DNA of 64,000 bases from Bacillota bacterium. Its GTDB lineage: Bacteria > Bacillota_I > Bacilli_A > RF39 > UBA660. A model generated the notes under the pieces. The model was not told the DNA's origin. It saw nothing but the letters and a program-made list of their open reading frames with translations, and ran no database searches. The DNA lies in NCBI GenBank assembly GCA_015059485.1, contig SVAH01000001.1, positions 66,724 to 130,723 on the forward strand, given 5' to 3'. Of the stretch, positions 1-27,145 are shown piece after piece; position 1 is the first letter of the stretch, and each line of letters starts with the position of its first letter. Position numbers and translations under genes: made by a program.

Positions 1-465
1 TTTACAAAAAGAAATAATATTTATATATTTGATGAAACAGAACCAGATAGATTTAGAAATCTTAATATTGATTTGATATATGTTAGTGGTGGTAATACTT
101 TTGCAACTTTGGATAAAATGAGAAAATGTGGTTTTGATAAAGATATAATTAGTTATATAAAAAATGGTGTAATATATATTGGAGGTTCTTGTGGTGCTCA
201 CATAGCAAGTAAAAATATCAAACACTTGGAAAAGTTAGATGACAATTATTTAAATATTAAAGATTATGATGCTTTAGGATTATTTGACGGAATAATAATA
301 CCTCACTATAATGAAGAAGAATATAATCCAAAGTTGAGAAAGCAAATATATGATAATTTATTAATTGAAAATAAATATAAAGTATATGCTCTAACAAATG
401 ATGATTCATTAGTTATTATTGATGATACAATTATTGAATATAAAGGAGGTAATACTCATGAATGA
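1..465 (+). CDS. Peptidase S51 (PepE-like, class I glutamine amidotransferase fold), 5'-truncated by the window edge; cargo of cassette 0
   Basis: Frame is open from base 1. Motifs IYVSGGNTF, YIGGSCGA (nucleophile Ser) and IIPHY are typical of the S51 family. Confidence 0.8.
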   Translation, partial: FTKRNNIYIFDETEPDRFRNLNIDLIYVSGGNTFATLDKMRKCGFDKDIISYIKNGVIYIGGSCGAHIASKNIKHLEKLDDNYLNIKDYDALGLFDGIIIPHYNEEEYNPKLRKQIYDNLLIENKYKVYALTNDDSLVIIDDTIIEYKGGNTHE

Positions 466-469
466 AAAT

Positions 470-500
470 AAAACAAATATAAACTGGTTGGTGTTGATTT
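470..500. repeat. Recombination junction J1 (att-like quasi-palindrome, central TG at 485-486)
   Basis: AAAACAAATATAAAC-TG-GTTGGTGTTGATTT; the left half encodes KTNINW, as in rbgA 42410-42427. Confidence 0.85.
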
Positions 501-655
501 AGTATAACTATTCATGAAACTCCTATAAAATAAGGGAAAACTAATATTTAATAATTACATATTTTAATAAATAATTACTAAAAAATATTAAAAATAACAA
601 AGTATTTAATACTTGGTGTTTACAGTCAAACTTTTAATAAAAAGAGGTGACAACA

Positions 656-1612
656 ATGAAAGAAATGTTAAAATTATTGAATAATTATTTAGTTATAATA
701 AATAGTTCTGTTGAAATATGGCTAGTTTTCAGTTCTTTAGATGAAGATGTATCTATAAAAGATTCTGATTTATTTGAATATTATTCTGATTTTAAACATA
801 TTGATTTGGAACATATTTCAACACATTTAATAAATGCGTGTTTACCCAGTGACAAAATTGAAAGGTTAATTAATGCTTTAAAAATTTTAAAAGAGACTTA
901 TATTAAATATGGTGTTAATAATCTAGATGAGTTATCTTCAAAAATATTAAATGAGTGGAATAATTCTAAGGATTATAGTGATGAATTAATTAAAGATATT
1001 TTATTAATAGAATGCCGCAGTGGATGGGATAAATTACCTAAATCTAATACGTCCTTATTAAAAATATACAAAGATATGGTTGATGGTGATATGATTGTTA
1101 ACCCTAATATTCCAGTTGGTACTTCATCTGAAAGATTATATACAATGTTACCTGATGATGCATCATGTTATAGATATAATTTAAAAGTTATATCTAATCC
1201 AATGATAGATTGGAGTATATATAGAAATGGTAGAAATCCTTTAGAACAGTATTGCGCATTATATAATAATAGTAAAAATGAAGAAGAAAGAAAATATTAT
1301 CATGATTTAATAATAACAGCTATTTTTAGTTCATGTAGTTTATTTAATAATAAATTTGCATGGCATACTAAAGCTCATAAAACTGAAGAGATGATTAATT
1401 ATTATTTATTAGTAGAAAAAAATGAAATAAATAGTAGGCATCATTCTTTAAATGATATTAGTTTTATTAGTGAAATACATGAATTATTATTAAATGATGA
1501 ATTGTTTAATCATCAATTAGAATTATATACTGAAAAGAATGATGATGCTGAAGAAGTAATTAAGGAATTAAAATTATCAAGAGAAAGTGTACAACATAAA
1601 GTGTATTTATAA
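656..1612 (+). CDS. Hypothetical protein (~318 aa), cargo of cassette 1
   Basis: ORF 647-1612; RBS AGAGGTGA favours ATG at 656; no recognisable motif. Confidence 0.75.
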   Translation: MKEMLKLLNNYLVIINSSVEIWLVFSSLDEDVSIKDSDLFEYYSDFKHIDLEHISTHLINACLPSDKIERLINALKILKETYIKYGVNNLDELSSKILNEWNNSKDYSDELIKDILLIECRSGWDKLPKSNTSLLKIYKDMVDGDMIVNPNIPVGTSSERLYTMLPDDASCYRYNLKVISNPMIDWSIYRNGRNPLEQYCALYNNSKNEEERKYYHDLIITAIFSSCSLFNNKFAWHTKAHKTEEMINYYLLVEKNEINSRHHSLNDISFISEIHELLLNDELFNHQLELYTEKNDDAEEVIKELKLSRESVQHKVYL

Positions 1613-1616
1613 GATT

Positions 1617-1779
1617 GCCATATGACCAGGTAACTCTTATGGTTAACTTGGTATTGGATTAGTCTAACTACGATAAATGACTTAAAAATGGACGAAATAG
1701 TAATAAATTTCGTCTTTTTTATGCTATAATTGAATAGAAATGGAGTGATTCCTATGGATAATAAAACTAATATTAACTG
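1617..1779 (+). repeat. Promoter-type right arm, copy 1 (near-identical to 3541-3702)
   Basis: Imperfect inverted repeat, terminator GACGAAAT..ATTTCGTC-T6, extended -10 TGCTATAAT, RBS GGAGTGA, ATG GAT AAT AAA ACT AAT ATT AAC TG. Confidence 0.85.
1691..1720 (+). terminator. Intrinsic terminator in the cassette right arm
   Basis: gacgaaat-agtaataa-atttcgtc followed by a T-run. Confidence 0.65.
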
Positions 1780-1793
1780 GTTGATATTGATTT
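1763..1793. repeat. Recombination junction J2 (central TG at 1778-1779)
   Basis: AAAACTAATATTAAC-TG-GTTGATATTGATTT (preceded by T). Confidence 0.85.
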
Positions 1794-2422
1794 AGTCTGA
1801 GTTTCATTCAAACTCCTATAAAATAAGAAAAAAACAAATATATGCTTGTTACATAATATAATAAGAATATAAAAAATAATGATAAAAATAACTGAAAAAG
1901 TATCAAAAGTAGCATAGTATTTGATACTTGGTATTGACGGTTAAACTATTAAAAACGAGGTGAATGATTATGATTTTAGATGGAGCAGATATAGGATTAG
2001 GTAAAGTAGTTATAACAGACTCACATGCAACAATTAATAATGTTGAAATACCAATAAAATGTGTAGATATATATAGTGAAGATCATATTTATCGTTTCAC
2101 ATTTTGGACTCAACAAGAATATGAAAAATATAATGATTTAGAATTGAATAAAAAAACTAATATTTTAGATCTTATAGATGACTACGATATTGATTTTGGT
2201 ACTAAAGAATATGGTACTATTAATTCAAGAGAAAATACTGAGATGTATTTTACTAGAATAGATACTGATAAATATATTTTAACTGCAGAGATTAAAAATT
2301 TTGAAAATTGTGTGCTTGGAAATATGAAAAATCATAAGAATTTAAAATTAGAAGCTATTATAGATTTTAATGATATAAAAGGAGTTGATCCAAATGAATG
2401 AAAATAAAACTAATATCAATTG
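1780..2422 (+). mobile_element. Single-gene cassette 2 (643 bp)
   Basis: Bounded by J2 and J3; conserved left arm; the ORF stop overlaps the rbgA-like start (ATGAATGA). Confidence 0.75.
1964..2401 (+). CDS. Hypothetical protein (~145 aa), cargo of cassette 2
   Basis: ORF with GAGGTGA RBS (start may be 1970); no family recognised. Confidence 0.75.
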   Translation: MIMILDGADIGLGKVVITDSHATINNVEIPIKCVDIYSEDHIYRFTFWTQQEYEKYNDLELNKKTNILDLIDDYDIDFGTKEYGTINSRENTEMYFTRIDTDKYILTAEIKNFENCVLGNMKNHKNLKLEAIIDFNDIKGVDPNE

Positions 2423-2436
2423 GTTGATATTGATTT
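2406..2436. repeat. Recombination junction J3 (central TG at 2421-2422)
   Basis: AAAACTAATATCAAT-TG-GTTGATATTGATTT. Confidence 0.85.
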
Positions 2437-2601
2437 AGTCTAGCCATTCATTAAACTCCTATAAAATAAGGAAAAATTAATATTTAGTAATTACATATTT
2501 TAATAAATAATTACTAAAAAGTATAAAGAATAGATAAAAAAACTCCAAAAATACCATAGTATTTGATACTTGGTATTGACGGTTAATCTAATATAAAAGA
2601 G

Positions 2602-3540
2602 GTGATTGTTTTGAATTTAATAGATACATTAAATACAAGTTATGAATATGTTTGTGATAACTCCAGAAATGTAAAAATAAATTATGATAAAATTGATGAT
2701 TTAATTGATCAGATTAATAACTCAAAGGTTGATTATTGGTTAGATTCAAATCCATATGGTTTAATGGATATGGATGTAGAAGAAATAATTAATTTCTTAT
2801 TCATATATCATGCAATAGGAGATTATTGCTTTTGGGGAGATCCTAAATGGGAAGTAAAAACAGATCTAGGTGTTATGGATGGGTCTTATGCAATAATGTA
2901 CTTAATACTAAATAGATTTAAATCAAATAATAATTTTGAAATTAGTTTTGATGAATTTAAAGAATTATTAAAAGGAAATGTAACAATTCCATTGTTAAAA
3001 GATAGATATCAAAATTTATTAGAAATGAATAGATTTCTTAAATCTAAAAATAAGTCATTCTATGAATTAATTAAAGAATTAAACATTGATAGTGAATTAT
3101 TTGAATTTATAGTTAATAATTTAGATTATTTTAAAGATATATCTAATTATGGAGGGAAAGAAATACTATTTTATAAAAGAGCTCAATTATTAACTTCTGA
3201 TATTCTACATGTTAGAGAGAAGAAAGAAAATATTGAAGTAGATTATTCTCATTTAATTGGTTGTGCTGATTATAAAATACCTCAAGTTATGAGATGCTAT
3301 GGTATGTTAGAATTCAGTGATAGTTTAGGAGATAAAGTTGATTCTAAAATAGAATTAAAAGAAGGTACTGAAGAAGAAATAGAAATAAGAGCAAATACTT
3401 TAAAAGTAATAAACTATATATATGAAAGATTAGATAAAAAATATTCTCGCATGGATATAAATGATTTTATATGGTTACTAGGTCAAAATAAATCACAAAT
3501 GACTAAATCATATCATAGAACATTAACAAAACATTATTAA
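2602..3540 (+). CDS. Queuosine salvage protein (QNG1/DUF2419-like queuosine-nucleotide N-glycosylase)
   Basis: Motifs YCFW, FYKRAQLLTSD, ADYKIPQVMR, EIEIRA, D.FIW and YHRT match the Q_salvage family; the true start may be TTG 2611. Confidence 0.8.
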   Translation: MIVLNLIDTLNTSYEYVCDNSRNVKINYDKIDDLIDQINNSKVDYWLDSNPYGLMDMDVEEIINFLFIYHAIGDYCFWGDPKWEVKTDLGVMDGSYAIMYLILNRFKSNNNFEISFDEFKELLKGNVTIPLLKDRYQNLLEMNRFLKSKNKSFYELIKELNIDSELFEFIVNNLDYFKDISNYGGKEILFYKRAQLLTSDILHVREKKENIEVDYSHLIGCADYKIPQVMRCYGMLEFSDSLGDKVDSKIELKEGTEEEIEIRANTLKVINYIYERLDKKYSRMDINDFIWLLGQNKSQMTKSYHRTLTKHY

Positions 3541-3702
3541 GCCATATGACCAGGTAACTATTATGGTTAACTTGGTATTGGTTTAATCAAACACGATAAA
3601 TGATATAAAAATGGCCGAAATTGTAATAAATTTCGTCTTTTTTATGCTATAATTGAATAGAAATGGAGTGATTCCTATGGATAATAAAACTAATATTAAC
3701 TG
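3541..3702 (+). repeat. Promoter-type right arm, copy 2
   Basis: Near-identical to 1617-1779. Confidence 0.85.
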
Positions 3703-3720
3703 TTCGATAGGAAATTAGGC
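3686..3720. repeat. Junction J4 = attL of the ICE (central TG at 3701-3702)
   Basis: AAAACTAATATTAAC-TG-TTCGATAGGAAATTAG; similarity to rbgA ends exactly after TG. Confidence 0.8.
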
Positions 3721-3889
3721 AACATTTTTTGAAAACTCCCGTAAAATAAGGGTAAAACAGCCATCGAGTAATTACATTTTTTTAACAAAAGTTGTAAAAA
3801 ATAGCAAAAAATACCCAAAAATACCTCAAAAATGGCATAGCATTTAAGGGGTGGTGTTCGGACGCAACACTTTAAAAAAGCAATTAATA

Positions 3890-3915
3890 TCAGATAGTTT
3901 TATCTGATTTTTTTT
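3890..3915 (+). terminator. Terminator-like hairpin just inside the ICE left end
   Basis: atcagata-gttt-tatctgat followed by T7. Confidence 0.55.
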
Positions 3916-3939
3916 ATGCAAAAATATAGGAGGGTTTTT

Positions 3940-4818
3940 ATGAAAGAGGAAGTTGTTGAATTAAATGTTAAAGACATATCAGATTTTCCAAAACATCCAT
4001 TTAAAATAAATAATGATTTAAATTATGAAGAACTTAAAAATAGTATTATTGAAAGTGGTGTTCTCGTTCCTACAATTGTGAGAAAGAAAGAAGATGGAAA
4101 ATACGAAATGTTATCTGGACATAGAAGAAAGAAAATATGTGAAGAACAGGGTATAAAAAAAATACCATGCATTGTTAAAAATGTTTCTGATGAAGAAGCT
4201 ATCATATTAATGGTAGATTCAAATCTTCAAAGAGATAAAATATTACCTAGTGAAAAAGCACTAGCTTATAAAATGAAATATGAAGCAATAAAACATCAAG
4301 GTAAAACTTCCGACCCATTGGGTTCGAAGTTATCAATCGAAGATATTGTAAAAGACACAAATGATAGTGCAACTCAAATAAGAAGATATATAAGGTTAAA
4401 TTATTTAATTCCAGAATTATTACAGTTAGTTGATGATACAGTTTTAAAAGATAAACGTGCTACTTTAACAATGGGATTAAGACCTGCTGTAGAATTATCT
4501 TATTTATCTAAAGATGATCAAGAACTTGTTTATGAAGAAATAACATATGAAGATTTAACTCCAAGTCATGTTCAAGCAAAAAGAATAAGAGAACTTGGAG
4601 AAAAAGGCGAATTAGACTCAGATATACTTGAGTCTATTTTTTTGGAACAAAAACCTAATCAAGCTAAAAGATTATCTTTTAATGAAGAGAGAATAAGAAA
4701 AGTATTACCTAAAGATATTAAGGATTATAAGATTGAAGATTTTATAATAAAAGCAATTGAGAGTTATTCTAAGACACTCTCCAATGAAAGGGGTGATTCA
4801 TATGATTTAGATATTTAG
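3940..4818 (+). CDS. ParB/RepB/Spo0J family partition protein
   Basis: HPFK, YEMLSGHRR, MVDSNLQR and IRRYIRL motifs; RBS AGGAGG before ATG 3940. Confidence 0.85.
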   Translation: MKEEVVELNVKDISDFPKHPFKINNDLNYEELKNSIIESGVLVPTIVRKKEDGKYEMLSGHRRKKICEEQGIKKIPCIVKNVSDEEAIILMVDSNLQRDKILPSEKALAYKMKYEAIKHQGKTSDPLGSKLSIEDIVKDTNDSATQIRRYIRLNYLIPELLQLVDDTVLKDKRATLTMGLRPAVELSYLSKDDQELVYEEITYEDLTPSHVQAKRIRELGEKGELDSDILESIFLEQKPNQAKRLSFNEERIRKVLPKDIKDYKIEDFIIKAIESYSKTLSNERGDSYDLDI

Positions 4819-4873
4819 CACCCTACAATATTTATTTATTTTCTATTATTATTTTAGTAAGAGGTGAAGAAGA

Positions 4874-5497
4874 ATGAAAAAAGTTATAATTAGCTTTATC
4901 ATTTTGTTTCTTATTGCTTCAGGATTCTTAACTTATAAATATGTATTTATGAGAAATAAAGATGAGAAAAAGCCAGTAGTTAATACTACAGTTATTGAAT
5001 CAAAAGTTGATTCAGAAGAAATGGAGGAAGAAGAAAATGAACCTATTACAGAAAATAATAAAACTAATAATGATATTGTTAAAAACGACAGCATTAATGA
5101 CAATAATGCTAATTCGAACAATATGGAGAGCAATAATGTTCGTAACTCTAATGTCGTAAAAGAAAATTCAATAACTAATAATGTGAAAAAAGAAGAGCCA
5201 AAACAGGAATCTGCTCCAGTTCAACAACCAGTAGTACAACCTGAACCAGAACCACCAAAACATGAACCAACAGCATGGGAAAGCTTAGGAATAAGTGAAT
5301 ATGATTATTATCATTCACCAATGTGGAGTTGGGCTAGAGTTGATTATAAAATTGAAGATTATGGAACATTTGATGCTACACATCAAGCTTGTATTGATGC
5401 TGGATATCAATTAGAAGATATAATTAGTTTTTCTTGTACAAACATTAATAGTTATTCGGGTGCTTATTTAGGGGATATGCTCAGAATAAAAAAATAA
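4874..5497 (+). CDS. Membrane-anchored surface protein with N/E/P-rich linker
   Basis: N-terminal TM segment, low-complexity stalk, small C-terminal domain with two Cys. Confidence 0.7.
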   Translation: MKKVIISFIILFLIASGFLTYKYVFMRNKDEKKPVVNTTVIESKVDSEEMEEEENEPITENNKTNNDIVKNDSINDNNANSNNMESNNVRNSNVVKENSITNNVKKEEPKQESAPVQQPVVQPEPEPPKHEPTAWESLGISEYDYYHSPMWSWARVDYKIEDYGTFDATHQACIDAGYQLEDIISFSCTNINSYSGAYLGDMLRIKK

Positions 5498-5513
5498 TGA
5501 AAGGAAAAATGAT

Positions 5514-8297
5514 ATGAAATCAAAATTATTTAAGTATGCTATGATGAGCATGCTTTTTATTTTGTCTATTTTTGGCATAACAGAAGTACATGCTGAACAA
5601 TACACTGGACAAGCAATCTGGCCTAGTGAATATATTAGTAATATCTATATTAAAAAAGATAGAAATGATGGTTATTCAAAATGGCAACAAGCAAGATTTA
5701 TTAGAAGAAGTGAAGATAATAAATTCGTTTATTGTTTACAACCATATACTGATATAGATAATAACTTACCTTATTATGATGTAATAAGAGAAGACTATGA
5801 AAGAGTATTAGGGTTTAGTGAAGCACAATGGGAAAGAATATCTTTACTAGCTTATTATGGATATCAATATGACCAAAATGGATATAATCATAATGATCAA
5901 AAATGGTATGCTATTACTCAAGTTATGATTTGGAGAACAACAAATCCTGAATCAAATATCTATTTTACTGATACTTTAAATGGTAATTATACATCTAAAT
6001 TTGATGGTGAAATAGCTGAACTTGAAAGCTTAGTTGCAAATCATTATAAAAGGCCACAATTACAAAGTGGAGTTGTTGTACCAATTGGAAGTACAACTGA
6101 AATGAATGATACTAACGGTGTATTAAGTAATTTTAAAATTACTTCTACAGATAAAGTATCAGCAACTATTAATGGAAATACTTTATCAGTAACTGCAAAT
6201 AGTATTGGTGAAGGATCTATTACTTTTGAAAAGAAAGCTACTAAGTATGAAATACCACCAATTGTTTATTTTAGTAATCATTCACAAAATGTATTTAGAG
6301 TTGGTAATTTTGACCCTGTATTAAGTAAATTTACTTTAAAGGTTATAGGTGGAAGAGTAACACCAACTAAAGTTGATGTTGAAACAAAAACAAATACTCC
6401 TCAAGGTGAAGCTAAATTAGGTGGAGCTGTATATGGTATTTATAAAGTTGATGGAACTAGAGTTGGGTCTGTAACTACTAAAGATGATGGAACAAATACA
6501 TCAGATTATTTACCTGAACTTGGTAGATTCTATTTATTAGAAGAACAACCATCAGAAGGTTATTTATTAGATAGTAATAAATACTATTTTGAAATAACAG
6601 AGAATAATTTAAATCCTACTGTGCAAGTATTTGAGCAAGTAATCAAATTAGATTTTGAATTTACTAAAGTGTATGCTAGTGCTGAAACTCAAATAATGGA
6701 ACCAGAAGTAGGTATTAAATTTGGAATTTATAATAATAAGAATGAACTTGTAAAAGAAATAACTACAGATTCACAAGGTGTATTTAGATTTACTTTACCA
6801 TATGGTACTTATACTGTTAAACAATTAACAACAACTAAAGGTCATGAAAAAATTGACGACTTTAATGTTGAAGTAAAAACTACAGGAGAAGTAGTTAAAA
6901 AAGTTATTTCAAATGCTCCAATTACTGCCAAGTTAAGAGTTGTTAAAATTGATTCTGAAACTAAGGAAGTAATAAAGAGAAGTAATATTAAATTTAAAAT
7001 ATTTGATGTTAAAAACAATGAATATGTATGTCAAACAATTACATATCCAACTAAAGAAACTATCTGTGTTTGGGAAACAGACGAAGATGGTGAATTTACA
7101 ACAGCTTATCCTTTAATGACTGGAACTTATAGACTTGAAGAAGTTGATCAAGTAATTGATGGCTATTTATGGAATAGTCAATCTCATGAATTTACAATTG
7201 ATGAAGATTCTAATTTAAGAACTGACTCAGAGTATGGAATAATATTCGATACTGATTTTGAAAACACTAGAGTAAAAGGTGAAATCAAAATTGAAAAAAC
7301 TGGAGAGGTTGCTGAACTTACTGAAAATGGATTTGAATTTAAAAATCAACCATTAGAAGGAGTTAAATTTGGTTTATATGCTAAAGAAGATATAGTATGG
7401 AATGGTAATACAATTTATACAAAAGATTCTTTAGTAACAGAAAAACTTACTGATAGTGAAGGTAAAATAGTATTTGATGAATTATATCTTGGTAAGTATT
7501 ATGTAAAAGAAATTGAAACATTAGATAATTATGTTTTAGATGAAAATACATATGAAGCTGAACTAGTATATAAAGATCAATATACACCAACTATCTTCTA
7601 TTCAGAAGCTTTATTAAATGTATTAAAAACTGGTAAACTAGAATTTACTAAAACTGATATGTCTGAATCTAAAACTCTTCCAAATACACTAATCGAAATT
7701 TATACAGAAAATGATGAACTAGTATTTAGTGGAAGAACTGATGAAGAAGGTAAAATTGTTATTGAAAGACTTCCTCAAGGAAAGTATTATATTATTGAAA
7801 AGGAAGCACCAGAAGGATACAAACTTAATGAAGAAAAAATGCCATTTGAAATTAAAGAAAATGGTGAAGTAATTAAATCAACTATGAAAGATGAAGACAT
7901 AACTGGAACACTTGAATTTACAAAATTAGATTTTTCAAATGATAATCCACTTTCAAACACTTTAATTGAAATATATAATGCTGATACAGATGAATTAGTA
8001 TTCTCTGGAAGAACTGATGATAATGGAACAATTACTATAGAAAAATTAAAATATGGTAAATATTACATTTTAGAGAAAGAAGCACCAGAAGGATATGAAT
8101 TAAATCCTGAAAGAATGTATTTTGAAATCAAAGAAGATGGAGAAATTGTTAAATCTGTAATGAAAGATAAACAAATAGTTAAAGTACCTAATACTGAAGA
8201 AAATGATTATAAAGAATTATTATTTAGTGGAATTACTTTACTAGTTTGTGGAGCAGGTGTAATTATTTATGGAATCAAAAATAAAAAGAAAAAATAA
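5514..8297 (+). CDS. Cell-wall-anchored adhesin with Cys-Gln thioester (TED) domain and SpaA/Cna-B-type repeats
   Basis: Signal peptide; VYCLQP and YAITQVMIW (TQxxIW) motifs; repeated EKEAPEGY modules; VPNTE sorting motif followed by TM and basic tail. Confidence 0.8.
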   Translation: MKSKLFKYAMMSMLFILSIFGITEVHAEQYTGQAIWPSEYISNIYIKKDRNDGYSKWQQARFIRRSEDNKFVYCLQPYTDIDNNLPYYDVIREDYERVLGFSEAQWERISLLAYYGYQYDQNGYNHNDQKWYAITQVMIWRTTNPESNIYFTDTLNGNYTSKFDGEIAELESLVANHYKRPQLQSGVVVPIGSTTEMNDTNGVLSNFKITSTDKVSATINGNTLSVTANSIGEGSITFEKKATKYEIPPIVYFSNHSQNVFRVGNFDPVLSKFTLKVIGGRVTPTKVDVETKTNTPQGEAKLGGAVYGIYKVDGTRVGSVTTKDDGTNTSDYLPELGRFYLLEEQPSEGYLLDSNKYYFEITENNLNPTVQVFEQVIKLDFEFTKVYASAETQIMEPEVGIKFGIYNNKNELVKEITTDSQGVFRFTLPYGTYTVKQLTTTKGHEKIDDFNVEVKTTGEVVKKVISNAPITAKLRVVKIDSETKEVIKRSNIKFKIFDVKNNEYVCQTITYPTKETICVWETDEDGEFTTAYPLMTGTYRLEEVDQVIDGYLWNSQSHEFTIDEDSNLRTDSEYGIIFDTDFENTRVKGEIKIEKTGEVAELTENGFEFKNQPLEGVKFGLYAKEDIVWNGNTIYTKDSLVTEKLTDSEGKIVFDELYLGKYYVKEIETLDNYVLDENTYEAELVYKDQYTPTIFYSEALLNVLKTGKLEFTKTDMSESKTLPNTLIEIYTENDELVFSGRTDEEGKIVIERLPQGKYYIIEKEAPEGYKLNEEKMPFEIKENGEVIKSTMKDEDITGTLEFTKLDFSNDNPLSNTLIEIYNADTDELVFSGRTDDNGTITIEKLKYGKYYILEKEAPEGYELNPERMYFEIKEDGEIVKSVMKDKQIVKVPNTEENDYKELLFSGITLLVCGAGVIIYGIKNKKKK

Positions 8298-8880
8298 GAG
8301 CTGGTTAATTATAATCGGCTCTTTAATCTTTCTTAGTGGTGTTGGATTAATAACATATGATTATTTATCTAATAGCAAGGTAGATAAAAAAGAAACTGAA
8401 TTGTTAGAAGAATTCTATGAAATAGAAGAGGAAATTGAATCTATAGAAGAACCTCAAGTAGTAGAAGAAGTAAAAGAACAAATTAAAGTTAATTATATTG
8501 CTGTACTTAAAATTCCTAAAATTGGTTTAGAAAGAGGTTTAGTAGATCCAAATAATTATCTTAATAATGTTAATTATAATTTAGAATGGTTAGATGGCTC
8601 ATCTATGCCAGATGAAATAAATGGTAATGTAATAATTGCTGGTCACTCTGGTAGTGCAAGAATATCTTATTTTAGAAAATTGGATAGATTAGAAATAGGT
8701 GATGAAGCTTCTATCATCTATAATGGTAAAACCTATAATTATAAAGTAGTAGATATTTATGATGTTGAAAAAACTGGTAAAGCAGAAATAGTTAAAGAAA
8801 AAAATACTACAACTTTAACATTAATTACATGTAGGCATAATACTAATAGACAGATAGTTGTCATATTTAAACAATTCTAA
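8269..8880 (+). CDS. Sortase
   Basis: N-terminal TM, IIAGHS, TLITC..R catalytic motifs. Confidence 0.9.
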   Translation: MESKIKRKNKSWLIIIGSLIFLSGVGLITYDYLSNSKVDKKETELLEEFYEIEEEIESIEEPQVVEEVKEQIKVNYIAVLKIPKIGLERGLVDPNNYLNNVNYNLEWLDGSSMPDEINGNVIIAGHSGSARISYFRKLDRLEIGDEASIIYNGKTYNYKVVDIYDVEKTGKAEIVKEKNTTTLTLITCRHNTNRQIVVIFKQF

Positions 8881-8936
8881 TTTTGCACAATATTTATTTA
8901 TTTTTATAATGTTATAATCTTTAATGAGGTGGTTTT

Positions 8937-9398
8937 ATGCAACGATTCTTTGATTATTCAAAAGGTAAAGTAGATAAAAAGAATAAAGATAGAATTGTCT
9001 TTATAAATAGAATGGCTATGCTTATGCAAGAATTCGAAAGTTCTAGTCCTGAAATAAATGAATTAGTTAATTGGTTATTTTGTAAATCTGAAGGAGTTCC
9101 TTATCTTGATTCTGATATGCAATGTGTATGTAATATAAAATTAGAACCACTTAAATGGCTAGATAAAAAAAGAGTAATTAAAGAGGTATGGGAAAATGAT
9201 GTTCATTTATATTCTTATGCATTGATGTTGCATGATTTAAACTATTGGACAAATAATGATGTTCTAAACGAAATTATTACAGAAATGTATTTTAGATTAG
9301 ATTATTTAATACATCCTTATGAAGAAGAACAACACGATAGAGATTTAGAAGATATAAGATATTTTATAGAATTTGATTATGTAGATGAGGAGCAATAG
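8937..9398 (+). CDS. Hypothetical protein
   Basis: ORF with GAGGTGG RBS. Confidence 0.7.
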   Translation: MQRFFDYSKGKVDKKNKDRIVFINRMAMLMQEFESSSPEINELVNWLFCKSEGVPYLDSDMQCVCNIKLEPLKWLDKKRVIKEVWENDVHLYSYALMLHDLNYWTNNDVLNEIITEMYFRLDYLIHPYEEEQHDRDLEDIRYFIEFDYVDEEQ

Positions 9399-9426
9399 CT
9401 CTTTTTATTTTGAAAGGTGGTTTATT

Positions 9427-10227
9427 GTGAATGAAAACATAAGAGACTTCGAGATACATGGTATCACAGGATATACTGTAATGAGTAATTATCATTTACG
9501 AGATCCTAATTTATCATTTAAAGCAAAGGGACTTCTTTCTATGATGTTATCAATGCCTAAAGATTGGGATTATTCTATAAGTGGTTTAGAAAAGATATCT
9601 AATGAGGGTAAATATGCAGTTAGATCTACTCTAGAAGAATTAAAAAAGGCAGAATATGTGAATATAAGCCGATTTAGAGATGAAAAAGGATTATTTAGGT
9701 ATAAATATACCGTTTACTATTTACCTTATCCTATGTGGTTAAAAATGCATAATTATCCAGATATCAATTTTCCGTATATGGATAATCCGAATACGGATAA
9801 CTGCACACAAATAAAGAATAATAATAAAAAAGATAAAATAGATAAAACACCAGACGAAATTGGTGAGGAAATTAAACATAATATTTTTACTAAAGAATTA
9901 ATTAAAAGGAACTATATTTCAGAAGATGATAGTAGTTCTTTTTTATTTGATCAATTATTTGAAGAATTATTAAAGCAAGGGAATAACTATAAGGATTTAT
10001 TAATTATGACTAACTATGTTGTATCTAGAATTAAAGAAAGAAATTTTAGAGATGAAAATGGTAATGAAATTAAAAATAAATATGGTTATTTTAAAAATGC
10101 CATAATTGGAAATATCAGAAGATTTGAAAACCTTGAACATTTATATGAAGATGGAGAATTTAATTGGTTAGATGATGATTCAGATTATGATTGGTTAAAT
10201 GATAATGAGGAGGATTATGAATTATGA
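9427..10227 (+). CDS. Phage-replisome-organizer-like replication initiator (N-terminal HTH)
   Basis: GYTVMSNYHLRDPNLSFKAKGLLSMMLS..DWDYS motif; RBS AAAGGTGG suggests GTG start at 9427; internal short repeats 9770-9803. Confidence 0.7.
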   Translation: MNENIRDFEIHGITGYTVMSNYHLRDPNLSFKAKGLLSMMLSMPKDWDYSISGLEKISNEGKYAVRSTLEELKKAEYVNISRFRDEKGLFRYKYTVYYLPYPMWLKMHNYPDINFPYMDNPNTDNCTQIKNNNKKDKIDKTPDEIGEEIKHNIFTKELIKRNYISEDDSSSFLFDQLFEELLKQGNNYKDLLIMTNYVVSRIKERNFRDENGNEIKNKYGYFKNAIIGNIRRFENLEHLYEDGEFNWLDDDSDYDWLNDNEEDYEL

Positions 10228-10445
10228 AAAATATAGAAGAAATTAAACTGATGGAAATTGAAGCTTTAAGTGATTTTGAAGATCATATAGGAATAGTTTT
10301 ATCTGATATGGATATTTTTAGAGAATATCTAGATAAAAAAGAATTAAAAAAATTTAATAAATGTTATGACTATTTAGATAATCTTTGGGAAAAGGTAGAA
10401 AATATCATAGCAAAAATAAGTGATGCTGATGAAAGAGGTAAATAA
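10224..10445 (+). CDS. Hypothetical protein
   Basis: ATGA overlap with the upstream gene. Confidence 0.65.
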   Translation: MKNIEEIKLMEIEALSDFEDHIGIVLSDMDIFREYLDKKELKKFNKCYDYLDNLWEKVENIIAKISDADERGK

Positions 10446-10446
10446 T

Positions 10447-10731
10447 ATGGAAGACAAATTTACTTATGTAGGTAGAATGTATGATTGGTATGAAGTAAAA
10501 GAAGATTATTTAAGAGTTTTATTTCAAGTATATGATAAAGAAACTAAATCATTCTACTTTTATGAGTTACAAGTTTATGAACCTGAATTAATATCTAAGT
10601 TTATAAATTTAAAACCAAAACAAGTAATTGGTGTAGAAGGTCATTTTGAGGAACTTATAAGTCATCCAGATAGAGGACTTTCTCATATTGAATTAGAACA
10701 TGTAGTAGATAAAATCATTACTTCTGAATAG
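10447..10731 (+). CDS. Hypothetical protein (possible OB-fold)
   Basis: RBS AGAGGT before ATG 10447; FTYVGR and VIGVEG resemble SSB-like strands. Confidence 0.6.
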   Translation: MEDKFTYVGRMYDWYEVKEDYLRVLFQVYDKETKSFYFYELQVYEPELISKFINLKPKQVIGVEGHFEELISHPDRGLSHIELEHVVDKIITSE

Positions 10732-10845
10732 AAGTATTTTTTTTTATTGAAAGGTGGTGGTTCTATAGAGTAAAAAAATTCAGGAATAGTCAACTGAATT
10801 AAATAAAATGGCTAAATATTTGATTTATAGAGGGAGGAAATTTAA

Positions 10846-11217
10846 ATGTTGAATCAAATTGTTATTGTTGGAAGACTAACTAGTAATCCAGAAGTTGTAA
10901 AATCTGAAAACGGAGGTAGTGATAGATCACAAATAACTCTAGCTGTACCTAGAAGTTATAAAAATGCCGATGGAGCATATGATACTGATTTTGTTGATTG
11001 TGTTCTTTGGGGTGGTGTTGCTGAAAATACAGCAGAATACTGTAAAAAAGGCGACATAGTAGGAGTTAAAGGTAGAATCCAAACTAACACTTACGAAACT
11101 GAAGAAGGAGAAAAGAAAAAATCAACTCAAATTGTAGCTGAAAAAGTTACTTTTCTTTCATCAAAAAAAGAAAAAGAAGACGACATTGAAAAATCAGACG
11201 ATGAATTAGAGATGTAG
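10846..11217 (+). CDS. ssb: Single-stranded DNA-binding protein
   Basis: MLNQIVIVGRLT, TDFVDCVLW and VGVKGRIQT motifs. Confidence 0.9.
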   Translation: MLNQIVIVGRLTSNPEVVKSENGGSDRSQITLAVPRSYKNADGAYDTDFVDCVLWGGVAENTAEYCKKGDIVGVKGRIQTNTYETEEGEKKKSTQIVAEKVTFLSSKKEKEDDIEKSDDELEM

Positions 11218-11340
11218 TCATGTACGAGAATAAAGCAAAGAAAAAGAGTTAAATCGCCAGCCAGCAAAATAACTCTAGTGATATTATATCACTTCTTTGC
11301 TTTTTCTTTTTTATATTTTTACAAAAGAAAGGAAAAACAT

Positions 11341-11598
11341 ATGAATTTATTTTATGAATTAATCAGCGATGATGCTGGAAGAAAATTAAAAAAAGAAAGA
11401 CAAGCATGGGGAATGTCTAGAAGAAGATTAGCAAAATTAGTAAAGACAGATAAAGAAACAATTGAATATATCGAAAAAGGATATGTTTGTATGTTGGATT
11501 CTGAATTACTTAGAAGAATAAGTGAAACGTTAGATGTAAACATGTTTGATTTCTTTAAAAGAAAATTAACATTTAAAGAAATGTTAGCAATAGTATAA
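11341..11598 (+). CDS. XRE-family HTH protein
   Basis: LKKERQAWGMSRRRLAKLV..TIEYIEKG; RBS AAAGGA before ATG 11341. Confidence 0.8.
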   Translation: MNLFYELISDDAGRKLKKERQAWGMSRRRLAKLVKTDKETIEYIEKGYVCMLDSELLRRISETLDVNMFDFFKRKLTFKEMLAIV

Positions 11599-11610
11599 GG
11601 AGGAATATTT

Positions 11611-11889
11611 ATGGGTAATTATTTACAAATGTTAAAAATCGAACATCTTGAAGGTGGAGGATACAATGTAGATTCAATTATTAAAGCAATTCAAACATTT
11701 TCTACTTGGGCTTTAAGAGTTGGTATTGCAGCTGCAGGTGTTTCACTAATTGTTGGATTTATTTTGTATGCTGTTGTTGATGTAGATAGAAAAGCTCAAG
11801 TTAAACAAAGGATAATTCAAACTATGTTTGGTATAGTAGGAATTATTTTAGCAATATCAATTGTAAATCTAATCATTGATTTATTCTAG
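11611..11889 (+). CDS. VirB2/TrbC-like pilin
   Basis: 92 aa with two hydrophobic helices, first gene of the T4SS block. Confidence 0.6.
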   Translation: MGNYLQMLKIEHLEGGGYNVDSIIKAIQTFSTWALRVGIAAAGVSLIVGFILYAVVDVDRKAQVKQRIIQTMFGIVGIILAISIVNLIIDLF

Positions 11890-11901
11890 GAGGTGATTTG
11901 A

Positions 11902-13314
11902 ATGTTATTAAAAGCATTAGATTTATTAAGAACTCTTGGATGGGCATTAGTACATTTTATTTATAATCTAATTGATTCATTATTTGATATTTTAAAAGGA
12001 TTAAATGCTTTTGATATAATCAATTCTGTTTCTGGAGATAATAACTTTATTACATTCCAAAAAGGTGTAATAGCAATTGCAGTTACACTTTTAGGATTAT
12101 TTGCAATAAGTAGATTTGCTAAAAAGATAATAGATCCTGATGAGGGATTAAGTTCTAGTGGAATAGTAAAGGAAATTATTAAATGTGGTGTGCTTATAAT
12201 TATGAGTACATTTTTATTTGTTCAAGCATCGACTTTTTCAATTAAACTTGCTGGCTTTACTTCTAATATATTCACAAATAATAATTTAACTATTTCAGAT
12301 TCAATGCTTACAATGTTTATTGATTATTCTGAAGGTTATAAAGAATGTGATGACTTTAAAGGTGAAGATATTGCAAAGAATGTTTCAAATGGAAACTTCA
12401 ATGCGAAAGAAATGTATAACGATAAATATGTGACTTCTAAGAGATTTATCTTACCAGATAAAAAAGATTATAAGTATAAGATTAATTGGATAATGGCTGT
12501 AATAGTTGGAGGATTTTTCTTATATTCATTATTCTTCTGTGGAATGATGTTAGCAAGAAGACAAATAGAATTTTTATTCTTATTTGTAATTAGTCCAATT
12601 ATATTTGCTACTTCAATTGGAAATAAAGAAAGAAGAAGTGCTGTAGTACAACAACTTGTTTCATTAATGTTACAAGGTGCAGTCATAATGTTAATTATTT
12701 CTTTAACAGCTATTGTAATGGGTCAAATAAATAGTACAACTTTCTTCAATAATACTTTTAAAGATATTGTAATTAAATCAATTATGTATATTGGTTGTGG
12801 TTCATTCTTATTAACTGGTTCTCAAGTAGTCAATAAGTTTATTGGTGGAAATGTATCAGCTAATAGTGGTAGAGAACAATTAATGGCTATGATGGGATTT
12901 GGTCAAGCAATGGGAGGAATAGCTTCAACAGCTGGACTTGGAGTTGCAGGAGCAGGTCTTATGGGAGCTGGAGCTTTAGCAAAAGGTGGAGATGTAGTTG
13001 GATCTAAAGTTGGTAAAGCTGGAAATTCTGCTTTAGGAAAAGTAGGACAAGCAGTATCTAACTTTGGTTCTAAGATGGGAGGTAAAGATTATACCTCAGG
13101 AGGTATTGGAAGTAATCTTAAAATGATGGGGGATTATTTACAAGCATCTTCAATGTCTAAGAGTGGAAATGCAGGAAATCAAAGATCTAGTAGATTATCT
13201 AGATTTGGATCTGGAATGATGAATGCTGGAAAAGAATCAATGGCTCAAGCTATGTCTAATGTAATGCCATCAAGAAGTATGTATAGAAGAAGATACAGAG
13301 GGAGAGATGATTAA
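11902..13314 (+). CDS. VirB6-like polytopic conjugation membrane protein
   Basis: Multiple TM segments, RQIEFLFLFVISP motif, Gly-rich C-terminus. Confidence 0.7.
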   Translation: MLLKALDLLRTLGWALVHFIYNLIDSLFDILKGLNAFDIINSVSGDNNFITFQKGVIAIAVTLLGLFAISRFAKKIIDPDEGLSSSGIVKEIIKCGVLIIMSTFLFVQASTFSIKLAGFTSNIFTNNNLTISDSMLTMFIDYSEGYKECDDFKGEDIAKNVSNGNFNAKEMYNDKYVTSKRFILPDKKDYKYKINWIMAVIVGGFFLYSLFFCGMMLARRQIEFLFLFVISPIIFATSIGNKERRSAVVQQLVSLMLQGAVIMLIISLTAIVMGQINSTTFFNNTFKDIVIKSIMYIGCGSFLLTGSQVVNKFIGGNVSANSGREQLMAMMGFGQAMGGIASTAGLGVAGAGLMGAGALAKGGDVVGSKVGKAGNSALGKVGQAVSNFGSKMGGKDYTSGGIGSNLKMMGDYLQASSMSKSGNAGNQRSSRLSRFGSGMMNAGKESMAQAMSNVMPSRSMYRRRYRGRDD

Positions 13315-13625
13315 TGTATATAACAGTACCAAGTATTAAAAAGACTCTAGGAAAATATATAGAGATGAAAGATTTATACATAGGTCTTCCTATGCTATTT
13401 TCATTTTTACTATTATTTTCATTCTCGAGTCATAAATTATTTTCATTATTGTATTTAACAATTTGTGTTTTTCTTATGTTACCAGTTAAGGTGTCAAAGA
13501 AGAATAGAATGTATAAAGTTGTAGCTCTTTTCTTTAGATATATAACTAGATGTAAAGAGTTTGCTTATAAAAGAAATGGAGATGAGGTAGATTGGAAAGA
13601 AAAACTAAAGATGAAAAAAATCTAA
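13314..13625 (+). CDS. VirB3/PrgI-like small membrane protein
   Basis: Two TM helices immediately upstream of virB4. Confidence 0.55.
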   Translation: MYITVPSIKKTLGKYIEMKDLYIGLPMLFSFLLLFSFSSHKLFSLLYLTICVFLMLPVKVSKKNRMYKVVALFFRYITRCKEFAYKRNGDEVDWKEKLKMKKI

Positions 13626-16054: not shown

Positions 16055-16335
16055 TAGAAGAATTATCCACTAAAGTAACCGATTTTTACTATGACTATGA
16101 TCCATATGAATTTAAGGATAATTATGAAAACTATAATGAAGGTTTAGAGGCAACACAAGAAGTGTTGTCTTCTAAATCTGAAACAAAAAAACTTATATCT
16201 GATTTAGAACAAATTAATGATGATTTGTATGGAGATAACGATCCAATAATAAAAGAGTTTTATGATAGAAGTTATAGTTTGATAAATGATTTAAATGAAT
16301 ATCAAAAAACATTAAAAGAAGATTATGAATTATGA
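16051..16335 (+). CDS. Hypothetical acidic protein
   Basis: Translationally coupled ORF. Confidence 0.65.
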   Translation: MIEELSTKVTDFYYDYDPYEFKDNYENYNEGLEATQEVLSSKSETKKLISDLEQINDDLYGDNDPIIKEFYDRSYSLINDLNEYQKTLKEDYEL

Positions 16336-17258
16336 AGAAAAAAATATTAAAAATAGTATTGGGCAGTAGTACAGGAATAATTGTACTTGCTTTAGTAATA
16401 TTAATTCCAGTATTAATGGTATTAGACTTTTTTGGAGCTAATATAACTGACAACTATGTAGAGAATAACATGGATTATGCTGATAGATATAAAGAGGCAG
16501 TTAATATAGCAATGAAAAATAAGAAAGGTTATGTACCTTTAACAAGAATTCTTTACTTCTTTTTGGAAGATGAGAATCAATCATTTTATCAAATTTATGT
16601 AGATAATTTAGATAAAGAAACAAATAGATTATTGCCAATTAGTGAAGTATGTGAACTTCAAAAATATAAGAATTTTGATGGGTGTAAAGATTATGAATCT
16701 GGAGACCAAATTGATGAGGAACAAAATAAACCGTTCTCACCACCAATTGATTTTTCAAAAGTAACTGTTACATCTTTTTTTATGGAAGAAAGAATAGTTT
16801 TTGGAAAATCTGATGTACATGGTGGATGGGATTTAGCATGTGGTAATAAAACTCCAGTTAAAGCTGTATGTGATGGTAAAGTAACAAAAGTTAGTTTTCC
16901 TTATAAAGAAAATGTAACTAATACAAGTGGAGGTGGAGGTAATCAAATTTACCTTGAATGTGAAGTAGATGAAGATGTAACTTACACAGTTATATATGCT
17001 CACCTTTATCCAGATACAGCAAAAGTTAAAACTGGAGATACTGTTAAAGCAGGAGATGAACTTGCTGGAGTTGGAACTACAGGGTATTCAACTGGACCAC
17101 ATTTACATTATCAAGTTGAACTAAATGGAAATAAAGTTGATGGTATGAGTTTAATAGATTTTGCTGATAATACACCAAACTTTAATCAATATCCAGATTT
17201 AACACCTGACCATAATTATAATTTTAATAATAATTATGATAATCAATTCAGACCATAG
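16332..17258 (+). CDS. M23 peptidase (conjugation cell-wall hydrolase)
   Basis: HGGWD, YAHL and STGPHLH motifs; N-terminal TM. Confidence 0.9.
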   Translation: MKKKILKIVLGSSTGIIVLALVILIPVLMVLDFFGANITDNYVENNMDYADRYKEAVNIAMKNKKGYVPLTRILYFFLEDENQSFYQIYVDNLDKETNRLLPISEVCELQKYKNFDGCKDYESGDQIDEEQNKPFSPPIDFSKVTVTSFFMEERIVFGKSDVHGGWDLACGNKTPVKAVCDGKVTKVSFPYKENVTNTSGGGGNQIYLECEVDEDVTYTVIYAHLYPDTAKVKTGDTVKAGDELAGVGTTGYSTGPHLHYQVELNGNKVDGMSLIDFADNTPNFNQYPDLTPDHNYNFNNNYDNQFRP

Positions 17259-18062: not shown

Positions 18063-18064
18063 TT

Positions 18065-20276: not shown

Positions 20277-20285
20277 AGGTATATT

Positions 20286-22729: not shown

Positions 22730-22753
22730 CCCCATTCGGACTACCTCTTTTTT
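22723..22753 (+). terminator. Intrinsic terminator ending the conjugation block
   Basis: gaggtag...ctacctc followed by a T-run. Confidence 0.7.
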
Positions 22754-22829
22754 CTTGCAAAAAATTCTTGTATATTTTAAACTAATTATAGTAACAATCC
22801 TATTTTATCGTTAACAGCTTTACGTATAT

Positions 22830-27128: not shown

Positions 27129-27145
27129 ATAAAAGAAAGGAATGA

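Follow-up and report, generated by a model that had tools for sequence, protein, structure and literature searches.

Small, mostly one-gene mobile cassettes swapped between distant species at the start of rbgA, in integron-like fashion and apparently with another family of recombinase

To our knowledge, no established system other than integrons collects and shuffles single-gene cassettes, and integrons depend on one family of tyrosine recombinases. The locus described here raises the question of what has placed a row of unrelated short genes at the start of an essential gene, rbgA, and whether these genes move as units. The DNA that was analysed, referred to as the window, is a stretch of 64,000 nucleotides (G000:C4:66724-130723) from a Bacillota genome, and the original prediction had singled out its left end as an array of cassettes stacked at a single integration site.

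The four junctions predicted at 485, 1778, 2421 and 3701 are real. A 17-nt core, AAAACNAAYATNAAYTG, is found at window positions 470-486, 1763-1779, 2406-2422 and 3686-3702, with its central TG at 485/486, 1778/1779, 2421/2422 and 3701/3702, and it recurs at 42410-42426 inside the intact rbgA gene. The expected RBS-ATG-KTNIN form was also recovered (RBS, ATG and MNEN or MDN ahead of each core, then KTNIN), as were the sizes of the complete cassettes (643-1293 bp predicted; 1293, 643 and 1280 bp found), the identities of the four ORFs (Peptidase_S51, E 3e-26; Q_salvage, E 1.3e-36; two orphans), and the location of intact rbgA (42368-43252) far to the right, after two large serine recombinases (LSRs, 39084-42322). 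The features of the window are as follows.

1..486, + strand: right part of cassette 14 of 17, with the S51 peptidase ORF and a short P arm
1-465, + strand: S51 peptidase ORF of cassette 14 (Peptidase_S51); the full ORF starts upstream at C4:66403
470..486, + strand: junction core between cassettes 14 and 15, central TG at 485-486
487..1779, + strand: cassette 15 (1293 bp), with a left arm of ~160 nt, a 321-aa orphan ORF at 647-1612 and a type 2 right arm
1617..1668, + strand: start of the type 2 right arm of cassette 15, comprising an 18-mer reverse-complementary to the WYPGHMA codons of rbgA, then a P'-like segment
1690..1715, + strand: terminator-like hairpin of cassette 15, then a copy of the rbgA promoter and RBS at 1716-1762
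1763..1779, + strand: junction core between cassettes 15 and 16
1780..2422, + strand: cassette 16 (643 bp), with a 145-aa orphan ORF at 1964-2401
2406..2422, + strand: junction core between cassettes 16 and 17
2423..3702, + strand: cassette 17 (1280 bp), with a queuosine-salvage ORF at 2602-3540 and a type 2 right arm at 3541-3702
3686..3702, + strand: attL junction core of the integrative conjugative element (cassette 17 P arm, TG, ICE P' arm)
3703..42409, + strand: integrative conjugative element (ICE), 38.7 kb
39084..40784, + strand: LSR1, 566 aa, with Resolvase, Recombinase and Zn_ribbon_recom domains
40754..42322, + strand: LSR2, 522 aa
42368..43252, + strand: intact rbgA, 294 aa; residues 17-291 align to 2-278 of B. 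subtilis YlqF (1PUJ)
42410..42426, + strand: attR core inside rbgA, central TG in the Trp codon of INWYPGHM

Three parts make up a cassette: a P' half-site of ~25 nt, which a 150-nt leader often follows; as a rule a single ORF in the same orientation as rbgA; and a P arm of ~45 nt that reproduces the RBS, start codon and KTNIN codons of rbgA. The P arm rebuilds the RBS, start codon and first residues, in line with the earlier claim that each unit regenerates both the site and a usable rbgA 5' end. For example, the P arm of cassette 14 consists of an RBS and ATG-AAT-GAA-AAT, and the stop codon of the S51 ORF overlaps the rebuilt rbgA start, as does the stop codon of the orphan ORF in cassette 16. 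The promoter copy in cassette 15 was matched to the native rbgA promoter by eye.

The array was expected to continue to the left of the window, and it does: 14 further junction cores lie at C4:56009-66333, and the four in the window (1-3720) are the last of 18. Counting leftward, as had been suggested, the junctions run up to a promoter-like rbgA leader, after which the first of them stands. The contig thus carries 18 co-oriented junctions plus attR, which bound 17 cassettes of 431-1872 bp each (14.4 kb in total), none with a recombinase. The array begins at the native rbgA promoter and reaches as far as the ICE's left end, and rbgA resumes at the right end of the ICE, which provides the rbgA promoter, RBS and first 14 codons. 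All of this lies within a contig of 205 kb, with unique flanks on either side; the two ORFs immediately upstream of the array encode a GDSL lipase and a 176-aa protein without assignment on the opposite strand. The junction pattern is not due to chance, because the genome contains 16 exact matches to AAAACNAAYATNAAYTGGTTG, on a single strand of a single contig, versus 0 in the reversed-pattern control. Over the whole array, Rfam returned nothing at E<=1, and a promoter scan of this AT-rich DNA was uninformative (116 sites, 142 expected).

The ICE encodes ParB, a VirB4-like ATPase, an M23 peptidase, a MobL relaxase, a VirD4 coupling protein, a type I R-M system and the two LSRs. It is inserted at the same TG as the cassettes, and attL, attR and all cassette junctions have this dinucleotide in common. 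At another locus (L060), a near-identical ICE left end stands behind a different cassette.

The alignment of RbgA to YlqF shows that the part encoded 5' of the crossover is a dispensable N-terminal extension. The site itself has the form of an LSR attachment site, being ~50 bp long with an imperfect dyad and a 2-nt TG centre common to both partners. Built from 266 junctions, the consensus matches itself across the dyad around TG at 11.4 of 25 positions, compared with 8.1 for shuffled arms and 6.6 for 23 rbgA junctions, part of this consensus being predetermined by the search pattern itself; it is symmetric with AAC/GTT at positions 1-3 and AAA/TTT at 12-14, and the symmetry is only partial. 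An ungapped 24-mer search for a second P' copy gave no signal (self 13.3, cross 12.7), and such a signal appears only with the outer 12-mer. Canonical LSRs recombine a distinct attP and attB into hybrid attL and attR sites, with direction set by a coiled-coil subdomain and an RDF. This canonical feature is not seen here: the left half-sites of the native site and the cassettes are identical in sequence, and the products would therefore again be attP-like and attB-like.

At least 118 contig stretches contain the junction pattern; they come from at least 96 other assemblies (an approximate count, made by hand) of species-level gut and rumen genomes, and a sample of the family shows it in 28 of 399 genomes and 21 of 145 genera, with 0 in the reversed-pattern control. 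Cassette content varies among these relatives, a comparison that the original prediction had called for. The 171 cassettes extracted have a median length of 849 bp; the longest ORF lies on the rbgA strand in 168 of 169, and exactly one ORF of >=60 aa is present in 132 of 170. Their cargo is mostly GNAT acetyltransferases and small unknown proteins, together with NUDIX and HAD hydrolases, peptidases and many unknowns. No cassette was duplicated within an assembly, and none of 20 whole small contigs was circular. Viral contigs gave 0 matches to the junction pattern, and a phage origin is therefore unsupported. The data are drawn entirely from MAGs assembled from short reads, and their contigs break at junction repeats (G017:C5, for example, begins exactly at a junction), so that cassette order and array length may be mis-assembled. 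Two DNA sequencing runs contain 0.95 of the sampled words and 16 further non-RNA runs 0.22-0.34, shares that are not evidence of anything.

Evidence for mobility comes from 27 pairs of cassettes from different assemblies that are at least 90% identical (range 91-99%), while the rbgA genes adjoining shared cassettes show an identity of only 68-75% (median 68.4% over 222 pairs). In all 12 pairs that can be compared the left neighbours are different, as are the right neighbours in all 15; in eight of these 15 one copy stands at rbgA and the other at a cassette. On the right side, similarity is lost 0-14 nt beyond the TG in 25 of 27 pairs (0-3 nt from TG in 18 of 27), and on the left side 3-43 nt beyond the TG in all 27. 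Such high identity in diverged hosts, with different neighbours and with similarity ending near TG, argues that the cassettes are discrete, horizontally mobile units, as the prediction of discrete one-gene cassettes at a single rbgA site implied. Its further idea that newer units push older ones leftward found no support, since recently shared cassettes are not enriched beside rbgA, the only attB-like position (6 of 22, versus 9 of 36 farther off).

As to the enzyme, seven of the 118 loci listed have LSR genes immediately downstream of the last cassette junction that was detected. Four of these LSRs, examined whole (L038, L060, L093 and L126), are 400-417 aa long and have no coiled-coil subdomain; they stop ~37 residues past the position matching residue 375 of the SPbeta integrase, the coiled coil of which spans about residues 380-479 according to the available part of one report (PMC11722253). 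At L038, L093 and L126, the short-LSR elements have a cassette-type P' arm at their left end and lie within arrays or terminate them. The best solved-structure match of a short LSR is the catalytic domain of TnpX (2mhc, E 2.7e-30), and LSR2 of the ICE is the closest relative of these proteins in its own genome, at 41-44% identity. No short LSR was found in that assembly, which is 74% complete, and a search at E<=1e-30 found no LSR in eight of 10 array-bearing genomes, including a one-contig genome. Tyrosine recombinases were absent beside the array and among the array ORFs scanned for domains. The prediction that ICE recombinases serve the cassettes was not established: the array directly adjoins rbgA without an ICE at about 22 of the 118 related loci listed, 8 of the 21 positions of the ICE P' arm depart from the consensus of the cassettes (counted by hand), and short LSRs occur elsewhere. 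Both the ICE LSR pair and the 400-417-aa array LSRs are candidates for the responsible recombinase.

We consider it likely that the locus is a tandem array of small, non-autonomous mobile cassettes that insert site-specifically at the TG in the Trp codon opening the conserved RbgA core. Since the P arm imitates the left half of the native site, each insertion would create an attB-like site beside rbgA and, at the far boundary, an attP-like one, so that further cassettes could insert and rbgA expression would be kept. The enzyme would be an LSR acting in trans, either a coiled-coil-less LSR of 400-417 aa on a sister cassette or the LSR pair of a same-TG ICE such as the one in the window. Transfer between hosts could proceed by co-excision with, or mobilisation by, same-TG ICEs. 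Several observations run against the scheme. At internal junctions both sides are attP-like, and canonical LSRs do not recombine such a pair; shared cassettes are not enriched at the attB-like position; most array genomes searched lack an LSR, and the assembly studied here lacks a short one; the ICE P' arm departs from the cassette consensus; and no circular form, empty site or recombination product was seen.

Three other readings deserve attention. The cassettes might be relics of accretion, that is, decayed ICE or IME stumps serially integrated at rbgA and reduced to one gene, in the manner of CIMEs or pseudo-SCC elements, and immobile as units. ICEs and small LSR elements do use the rbgA site, some cassette P arms (MNNEEKN.QKTNINW, at C4:61035 and 62675) resemble those of short-LSR elements, and most array genomes searched lack an LSR. 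Random decay would hardly yield the uniform size, the predominance of single ORFs and the uniform orientation described above, and immobile stumps are difficult to reconcile with single cassettes 91-99% identical in hosts whose rbgA is ~70% identical, with different neighbours in every comparable pair and breakpoints at TG, or with one cassette that lies mid-array in L071 and beside rbgA in L139. We therefore regard decay as unlikely.

The same scarcity of LSRs would suit shuffling by DNA uptake and ordinary recombination between the conserved junction repeats of 45-200 bp, with no dedicated site-specific enzyme; over 25-45 nt the junctions are nearly identical to one another, left arms form families, and left breakpoints can be placed only to within the conserved stretch. 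The right breakpoints, however, are tightly clustered at TG and never fall within a cassette, the first insertion into native rbgA requires a non-homologous event, the dyad symmetry and length of the site are those of an LSR site, and LSR-bearing elements open with the cassettes' P' arm and are inserted at this core as well, all of which makes this reading quite improbable. Finally, the assembler could have used the repeated junction to join different strain variants into one long, chimeric array. Several MAGs have contigs that end at junctions, and one has at least 26 junctions over five contigs; the array studied here is embedded between unique flanks and contains no cassette twice, and arrays are present in at least 96 independent assemblies, in some cases on contigs as long as 0.95 and 1.26 Mb. 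An artefact of this kind, which could alter the order or count of cassettes and not create them, is very improbable as an explanation of the array.

Site-specific insertion, the reading that we prefer, invites comparison with known systems. Like integrons and CALINs, the rbgA arrays are long series of small cassettes that point the same way, mostly contain one ORF and have a recombination site at their boundaries, with cargo dominated by GNAT acetyltransferases and small unknown proteins, and like CALINs many of them reside in genomes without a recombinase. Unlike integrons, with their IntI, attI and attC, they showed no tyrosine recombinase beside the array or among the array ORFs scanned, no fixed attI, and a candidate recombinase carried on a cassette or an ICE; their platform is the 5' end of an essential gene, rebuilt by every cassette. 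Whereas attC is a folded single strand, the rbgA site seems to be a ~50-bp double-strand dyad with a 2-nt centre; only one of the four window junctions folds better than its shuffles as a single strand (z -3.55; the others +0.46, -1.10 and -1.91), a weak signal that is not consistent among junctions. The structural match to TnpX recalls the clostridial LSRs TnpX and TndX (Tn4451, Tn5397). TnpX alone performs both excision and insertion, with a 2-nt core; it is much larger than the short array LSRs and moves its own multi-gene transposon, and we know of no cassette arrays associated with it.

Staphylococcal SCC and pseudo-SCC elements (CcrA/CcrB/CcrC) likewise have LSRs at the site, sometimes paired, target and regenerate the end of a housekeeping gene, and form tandems, some members without a recombinase, each between site repeats, as in the 17 cassettes, 18 junctions and intact rbgA seen here; this likeness is drawn in part from two sources (10.1101/336396; PMC13739063). 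SCC elements are multi-gene islands, one composite of three elements measuring 40 kb in the accessible text (10.1101/336396), and sit at the 3' end of rlmH/orfX, whereas the rbgA units are 0.4-1.9 kb, number up to 17 or more per array in unrelated hosts, and sit in a Trp codon near the 5' end of the gene, bringing an RBS and start codon. The stacking of non-autonomous, att-flanked elements beside a same-site ICE resembles accretion and cis-mobilisation in CIMEs and ICESt1/ICESt3, although only a few CIMEs share a site and they are no one-gene cassettes. In the portions of the literature available, the rbgA 5' end is a known target of streptococcal ICEs, which preserve the N-terminus on integration (PMC4701971; PMC7168690; PMC6079316) and use tyrosine integrases (PMC4701971). 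The tycheposons of Prochlorococcus also integrate repeatedly at one site, pushing older elements inward and leaving partial site copies and degenerate remnants, and, as far as the accessible text describes them, mostly target tRNA genes, with a tyrosine recombinase in 910 of 937 and an LSR in a minority (10.1101/2020.12.28.424599). Unlike the rbgA cassettes, tycheposons carry their own integrase, many have replication genes, and they are not minimal one-gene units.

The array type had been suspected to be undescribed, and a search of the published literature at the level of the articles themselves likewise found no description of rbgA cassette arrays or serine-recombinase cassette arrays. If the proposal is true, cassette capture has evolved again, on a serine-recombinase scaffold, and rebuilding the 5' end of an essential gene is a way to keep every insertion harmless and expressed. 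The arrays would also represent a horizontally shared pool of small accessory genes in uncultured, streamlined 1-Mb gut and rumen bacteria, and natural LSRs without a direction-control subdomain, with ~50-bp sites and hundreds of natural variants, could interest genome engineers. More tentatively, and as a real possibility that we stop short of favouring, the arrays may amount to a "serine integron": a second, independently evolved cassette platform in the start of an essential gene, spread in a family of uncultured small-genome gut Bacillota, whose own coiled-coil-less LSRs move about as cassettes and recombine like sites with no control of direction. The conserved additional half-site copies within the arms may then be accessory sites, and ORF-less leader and terminator-promoter modules might keep rbgA and the cassettes expressed. 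As to the individual cargo, a metagenome scan with the 321-aa orphan of cassette 15 returned only two relatives, at 54-55% identity, one without any junction and the other upstream of four junctions.

A 17-nt core, AAAACNAAYATNAAYTG, occurs 19 times on contig C4 of the window's own genome, always on the plus strand, with 18 copies within C4:56009-C4:70409 and one in rbgA at C4:109133. The 18 cores delimit 17 cassettes of 431-1872 bp each (14.4 kb in total), that is, small and mostly one-ORF units, numbered here 1-17 toward rbgA. The window, G000:C4:66724-130723, holds the last three cassettes and a portion of a fourth, and a pattern search placed its cores as follows (window coordinates, plus strand):

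470-486, cassette junction core
1763-1779, cassette junction core
2406-2422, cassette junction core
3686-3702, cassette junction core
42410-42426, core AAAACNAAYATNAAYTG inside intact rbgA

The sequence leading into each of the first four comprises an RBS, ATG, MNEN or MDN, and then KTNIN. A longer pattern ending in GTTG gave 16 exact matches in this genome versus none for its reversed control. The four junctions of the original prediction (window 1-3720) were thus found at all four reported places, and its further claim that the array goes on to the left of the window was borne out when all 18 junctions were counted back along the contig. Before the first come a T-run resembling a terminator, a box resembling TATAAT and then ATG-AAT-GAA-AAT, read here as the probable native rbgA leader; the two genes upstream of it, a GDSL lipase and an ORF without assignment, are both on the minus strand.

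The central TG of the core falls within the Trp codon of the RbgA motif INW(Y/F)PGHM. B. subtilis YlqF (1PUJ) starts just four residues ahead of this Trp, and the RbgA of the window aligns to it from residue 17; all rbgA sequence 5' of the crossover is therefore replaceable. The consensus of 266 distinct cassette junctions, part of which was set by the search pattern itself, has dyad symmetry around TG (AAC/GTT at positions 1-3, AAA/TTT at positions 12-14), with a mean of 11.4 symmetric matches out of 25, compared with 8.1 for shuffled right arms and 6.6 in 23 rbgA junctions. Because the right end of a cassette (the P arm, with the RBS, ATG and KTNIN codons of rbgA) is identical in sequence to the native left half-site of rbgA, integration of a cassette would leave the site adjoining rbgA attB-like and the one at the far end attP-like.

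The mobility of these units was examined in 171 extracted cassettes (median 849 bp). Twenty-seven pairs from different assemblies share at least 90% identity over at least 70% of their length, the highest value being 99%, compared with 68-75% (median 68.4%, 222 pairs) for the array-adjacent rbgA genes; between the window's genome and locus L085, the respective values are 97.3% for the cassette and 68.5% for rbgA. On the right, similarity stops 0-14 nt beyond the TG in 25 of the 27 pairs (0-3 nt in 18); on the left, it runs 3-43 nt past the TG before it stops, in all 27 pairs within the arm common to all junctions. Cassette content and order vary between related genomes, in keeping with the separately integrated units originally predicted: the left neighbour was unlike in 12/12 comparable shared pairs and the right neighbour in 15/15 (in eight of these, one copy lies beside rbgA and the other beside a cassette), and locus L141 carries cassettes 10 and 11 of the window's genome in reverse order. 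Pairs with neighbours beyond the 8-kb tiles were left out of this comparison; in one of them (L079_2/L130_3), similarity runs 137 nt into the next unit, which may represent a shared two-cassette block. No duplicate cassettes were found within one assembly. The reading of cassettes as discrete mobile units is well supported by these alignments.

The P' arm lies directly to the right of the central TG, begins with GTTG (CTTG in one case) and has an ATTTA-like box about 11 nt in. Left arms are either short, with an RBS at once and the ORF 25-49 nt from the cassette start (21/168 measured plus-strand cassettes), or of a leader type, the distance from cassette start to ORF start being most often 175-224 nt (81/168). 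The longest ORF lies on the rbgA strand in 168/169 cassettes, and in 132/170 just one ORF reaches 60 aa. P arms are mostly short, with the ORF ending less than 70 nt ahead of the core end in 120/168. In some cassettes, window 1-486 and 1780-2422 among them, the ORF stop overlaps the rebuilt rbgA ATG. The window also contains longer arms:

487-646, 1780-1963, 2423-2601 and 3703-3900, long left arms with a second P' copy (also seen in related loci)
1617-1779 and 3541-3702, type 2 right arms, a longer second form of the P arm
1617-1668 and 3541-3592, reverse-complement 18-mer followed by a P'-like segment
1690-1715, terminator-like hairpin in a type 2 right arm

In long left arms, including that of the integrative conjugative element (ICE) described below, the outer P' segment recurs 25-45 nt ahead of the first ORF, as a second copy specific to the element; among 94 left arms of 150-240 nt gathered for alignment, 23 had such a copy with at least 10/12 matches, versus 0.3% of 6362 cross-comparisons. 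Short-arm cassettes resemble a long arm minus the stretch between its two P' copies. Type 2 right arms all begin with an 18-mer, the rbgA WYPGHMA codons in reverse complement, and then a P'-like segment; behind the hairpin, the promoter and RBS of rbgA are repeated (compared by eye). The 18-mer has 26 plus-strand copies in this and related arrays, 20 of them 142-158 nt before the next core. The second P' copies and reverse-complement 18-mers could serve as accessory binding sites whose spacing is altered, for which the res sites of resolvases offer a comparison, or be fused modules that lack an ORF.

An ICE occupies the same TG:

3703-42409, ICE with ParB, VirB4-like ATPase, M23 peptidase, MobL relaxase, VirD4-type coupling protein and type I restriction-modification

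Its right end encodes two large serine recombinases (LSRs) of 566 and 522 aa and provides a promoter-like box, an RBS and MSNTNENQSVAKTNIN, and its P' arm is identical to the cassette consensus at 13/21 positions (manual count). At locus L060, a near-identical ICE left end with ParB follows a different cassette. The cargo at window 22902-31799 comprises an AMP-binding enzyme, a hybrid histidine kinase/response regulator and the type I restriction-modification genes (HsdR, HsdM).

In 7/118 loci, among the matches listed, LSR genes are situated downstream of the final cassette junction detected, and no LSR was detected at E<=1e-30 in 8 of the 10 array genomes searched, a single-contig genome among them; the recombinase that acts on the cassettes is therefore one that we infer, with the ICE pair, put forward in the original prediction, as a candidate. 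In the window's own assembly (74% complete), the ICE pair is joined only by a more distant LSR on contig C5, along with weak partial matches on C14, C16 and C26. The C5 gene (G000:C5:1884-3416) is full-length and 31-34% identical to the ICE pair. At loci L093 and L126, an LSR of 400-411 aa closes an element that has a cassette-type P' arm at its left and rebuilds rbgA at its right end; elements with a short LSR also occur in mid-array (L038) and just ahead of the ICE (L060). The short LSRs (Resolvase, Recombinase and Zn_ribbon_recom domains) are 41-44% identical to the second ICE enzyme, with a gap of about 110 residues in the alignment, and likewise align with SPbeta integrase residues 15-375, ending about 37 residues further. 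The SPbeta coiled coil is reported to have hinges at 379/380 and 479/480 and to govern direction (PMC11722253). Because the alignment stops near that hinge and the gap is present, the short LSRs probably lack the coiled coil and, with it, the direction-control subdomain. Under the cassette model, such an enzyme would be expected to recombine like sites both ways, with no further factor required.

The original prediction had the stack growing at its rbgA end, with older units pushed leftward. If the attB-like site were the sole place of insertion, cassettes shared recently would be expected beside rbgA, and this was not the case (6/22 adjacent versus 9/36 non-adjacent), so that this part of the prediction gained no support. 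Either recombination takes place between like sites or the arrays have a fast turnover; the direction of array growth and its present-day activity are likewise features that we infer.

A scan of species-representative genomes returned the junction pattern in at least 118 stretches from at least 96 assemblies (hand count by accession prefix), nearly all gut or rumen MAGs labelled Bacilli, Erysipelotrichaceae, Tenericutes or similar. Within the window's family, 28/399 sampled genomes and 21/145 genera were positive, mostly with 1-5 copies and 12 in one, and the reversed control gave none in any genome; the pattern was found in none of four congeners searched. At about 22 loci or more, the array runs directly into rbgA with no ICE between. 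One MAG has at least 26 junctions over five contigs (L036, L058, L066, L067, L082, L083), possibly a larger array than that of the window, fragmented by the assembler; assemblers do break at junctions, as one G017 contig, which starts exactly at one, shows. In two congeners without cassette junctions (L023, G002:C127; L024, G003:C17), an LSR-bearing element lies directly before rbgA, and the rebuilt N-termini differ (…KVFHKTSINW and …NKIDINW), so that the site is a hotspot for several LSR lineages.

The original observation is thus confirmed and extended. ICEs known at rbgA in streptococci use tyrosine integrases (PMC4701971; PMC7168690; PMC6079316), and tandem accretion of recombinase-less elements is described for CIMEs, SCC composite islands (10.1101/336396; PMC13739063) and tycheposons (10.1101/2020.12.28.424599); a 2026 genomic-island survey covers only att-delimited units >2 kb, with serine recombinases in <1% (10.64898/2026.01.13.699239). 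Neither one-gene cassette arrays with serine-recombinase sites nor cassette arrays at rbgA were found described in the literature, where supplementary lists may hold such loci unremarked. We file the rbgA array as a case of tandem accretion that uses a serine-recombinase site and works in the manner of an integron; the chance that it merits the name of a new kind of cassette platform is substantial.

The 17 cargoes of the window's array comprise eight proteins without a Pfam family (a count that takes in the partner-free orphans of the S51 cassette), three GNAT acetyltransferases, and one each of DUF3841, HAD hydrolase, SAM methyltransferase, ADP-ribosylglycohydrolase, S51 peptidase and queuosine-salvage enzyme; the sole two-gene cassette encodes an HTH regulator and a CPBP protease. 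Across arrays, 150 cassette ORFs were compared with Pfam.

Pfam families among 150 cassette ORFs
GNAT (Acetyltransf_1), 19
NUDIX, 7
Peptidase_S51, 6
HAD, 4
NADAR, 3
Methyltransferase, 3
CPBP (Rce1-like), 3
UDG, 3

A relative of the 321-aa orphan (54% identical) lies on a metagenome contig (L153, 4001-4936), about 0.6 kb upstream of four junctions, and itself bears no recognisable one. A second S51 peptidase gene, outside the window at G000:C4:147061-147478 (minus strand), has 75% DNA identity to the cassette S51 gene (window 1-465).
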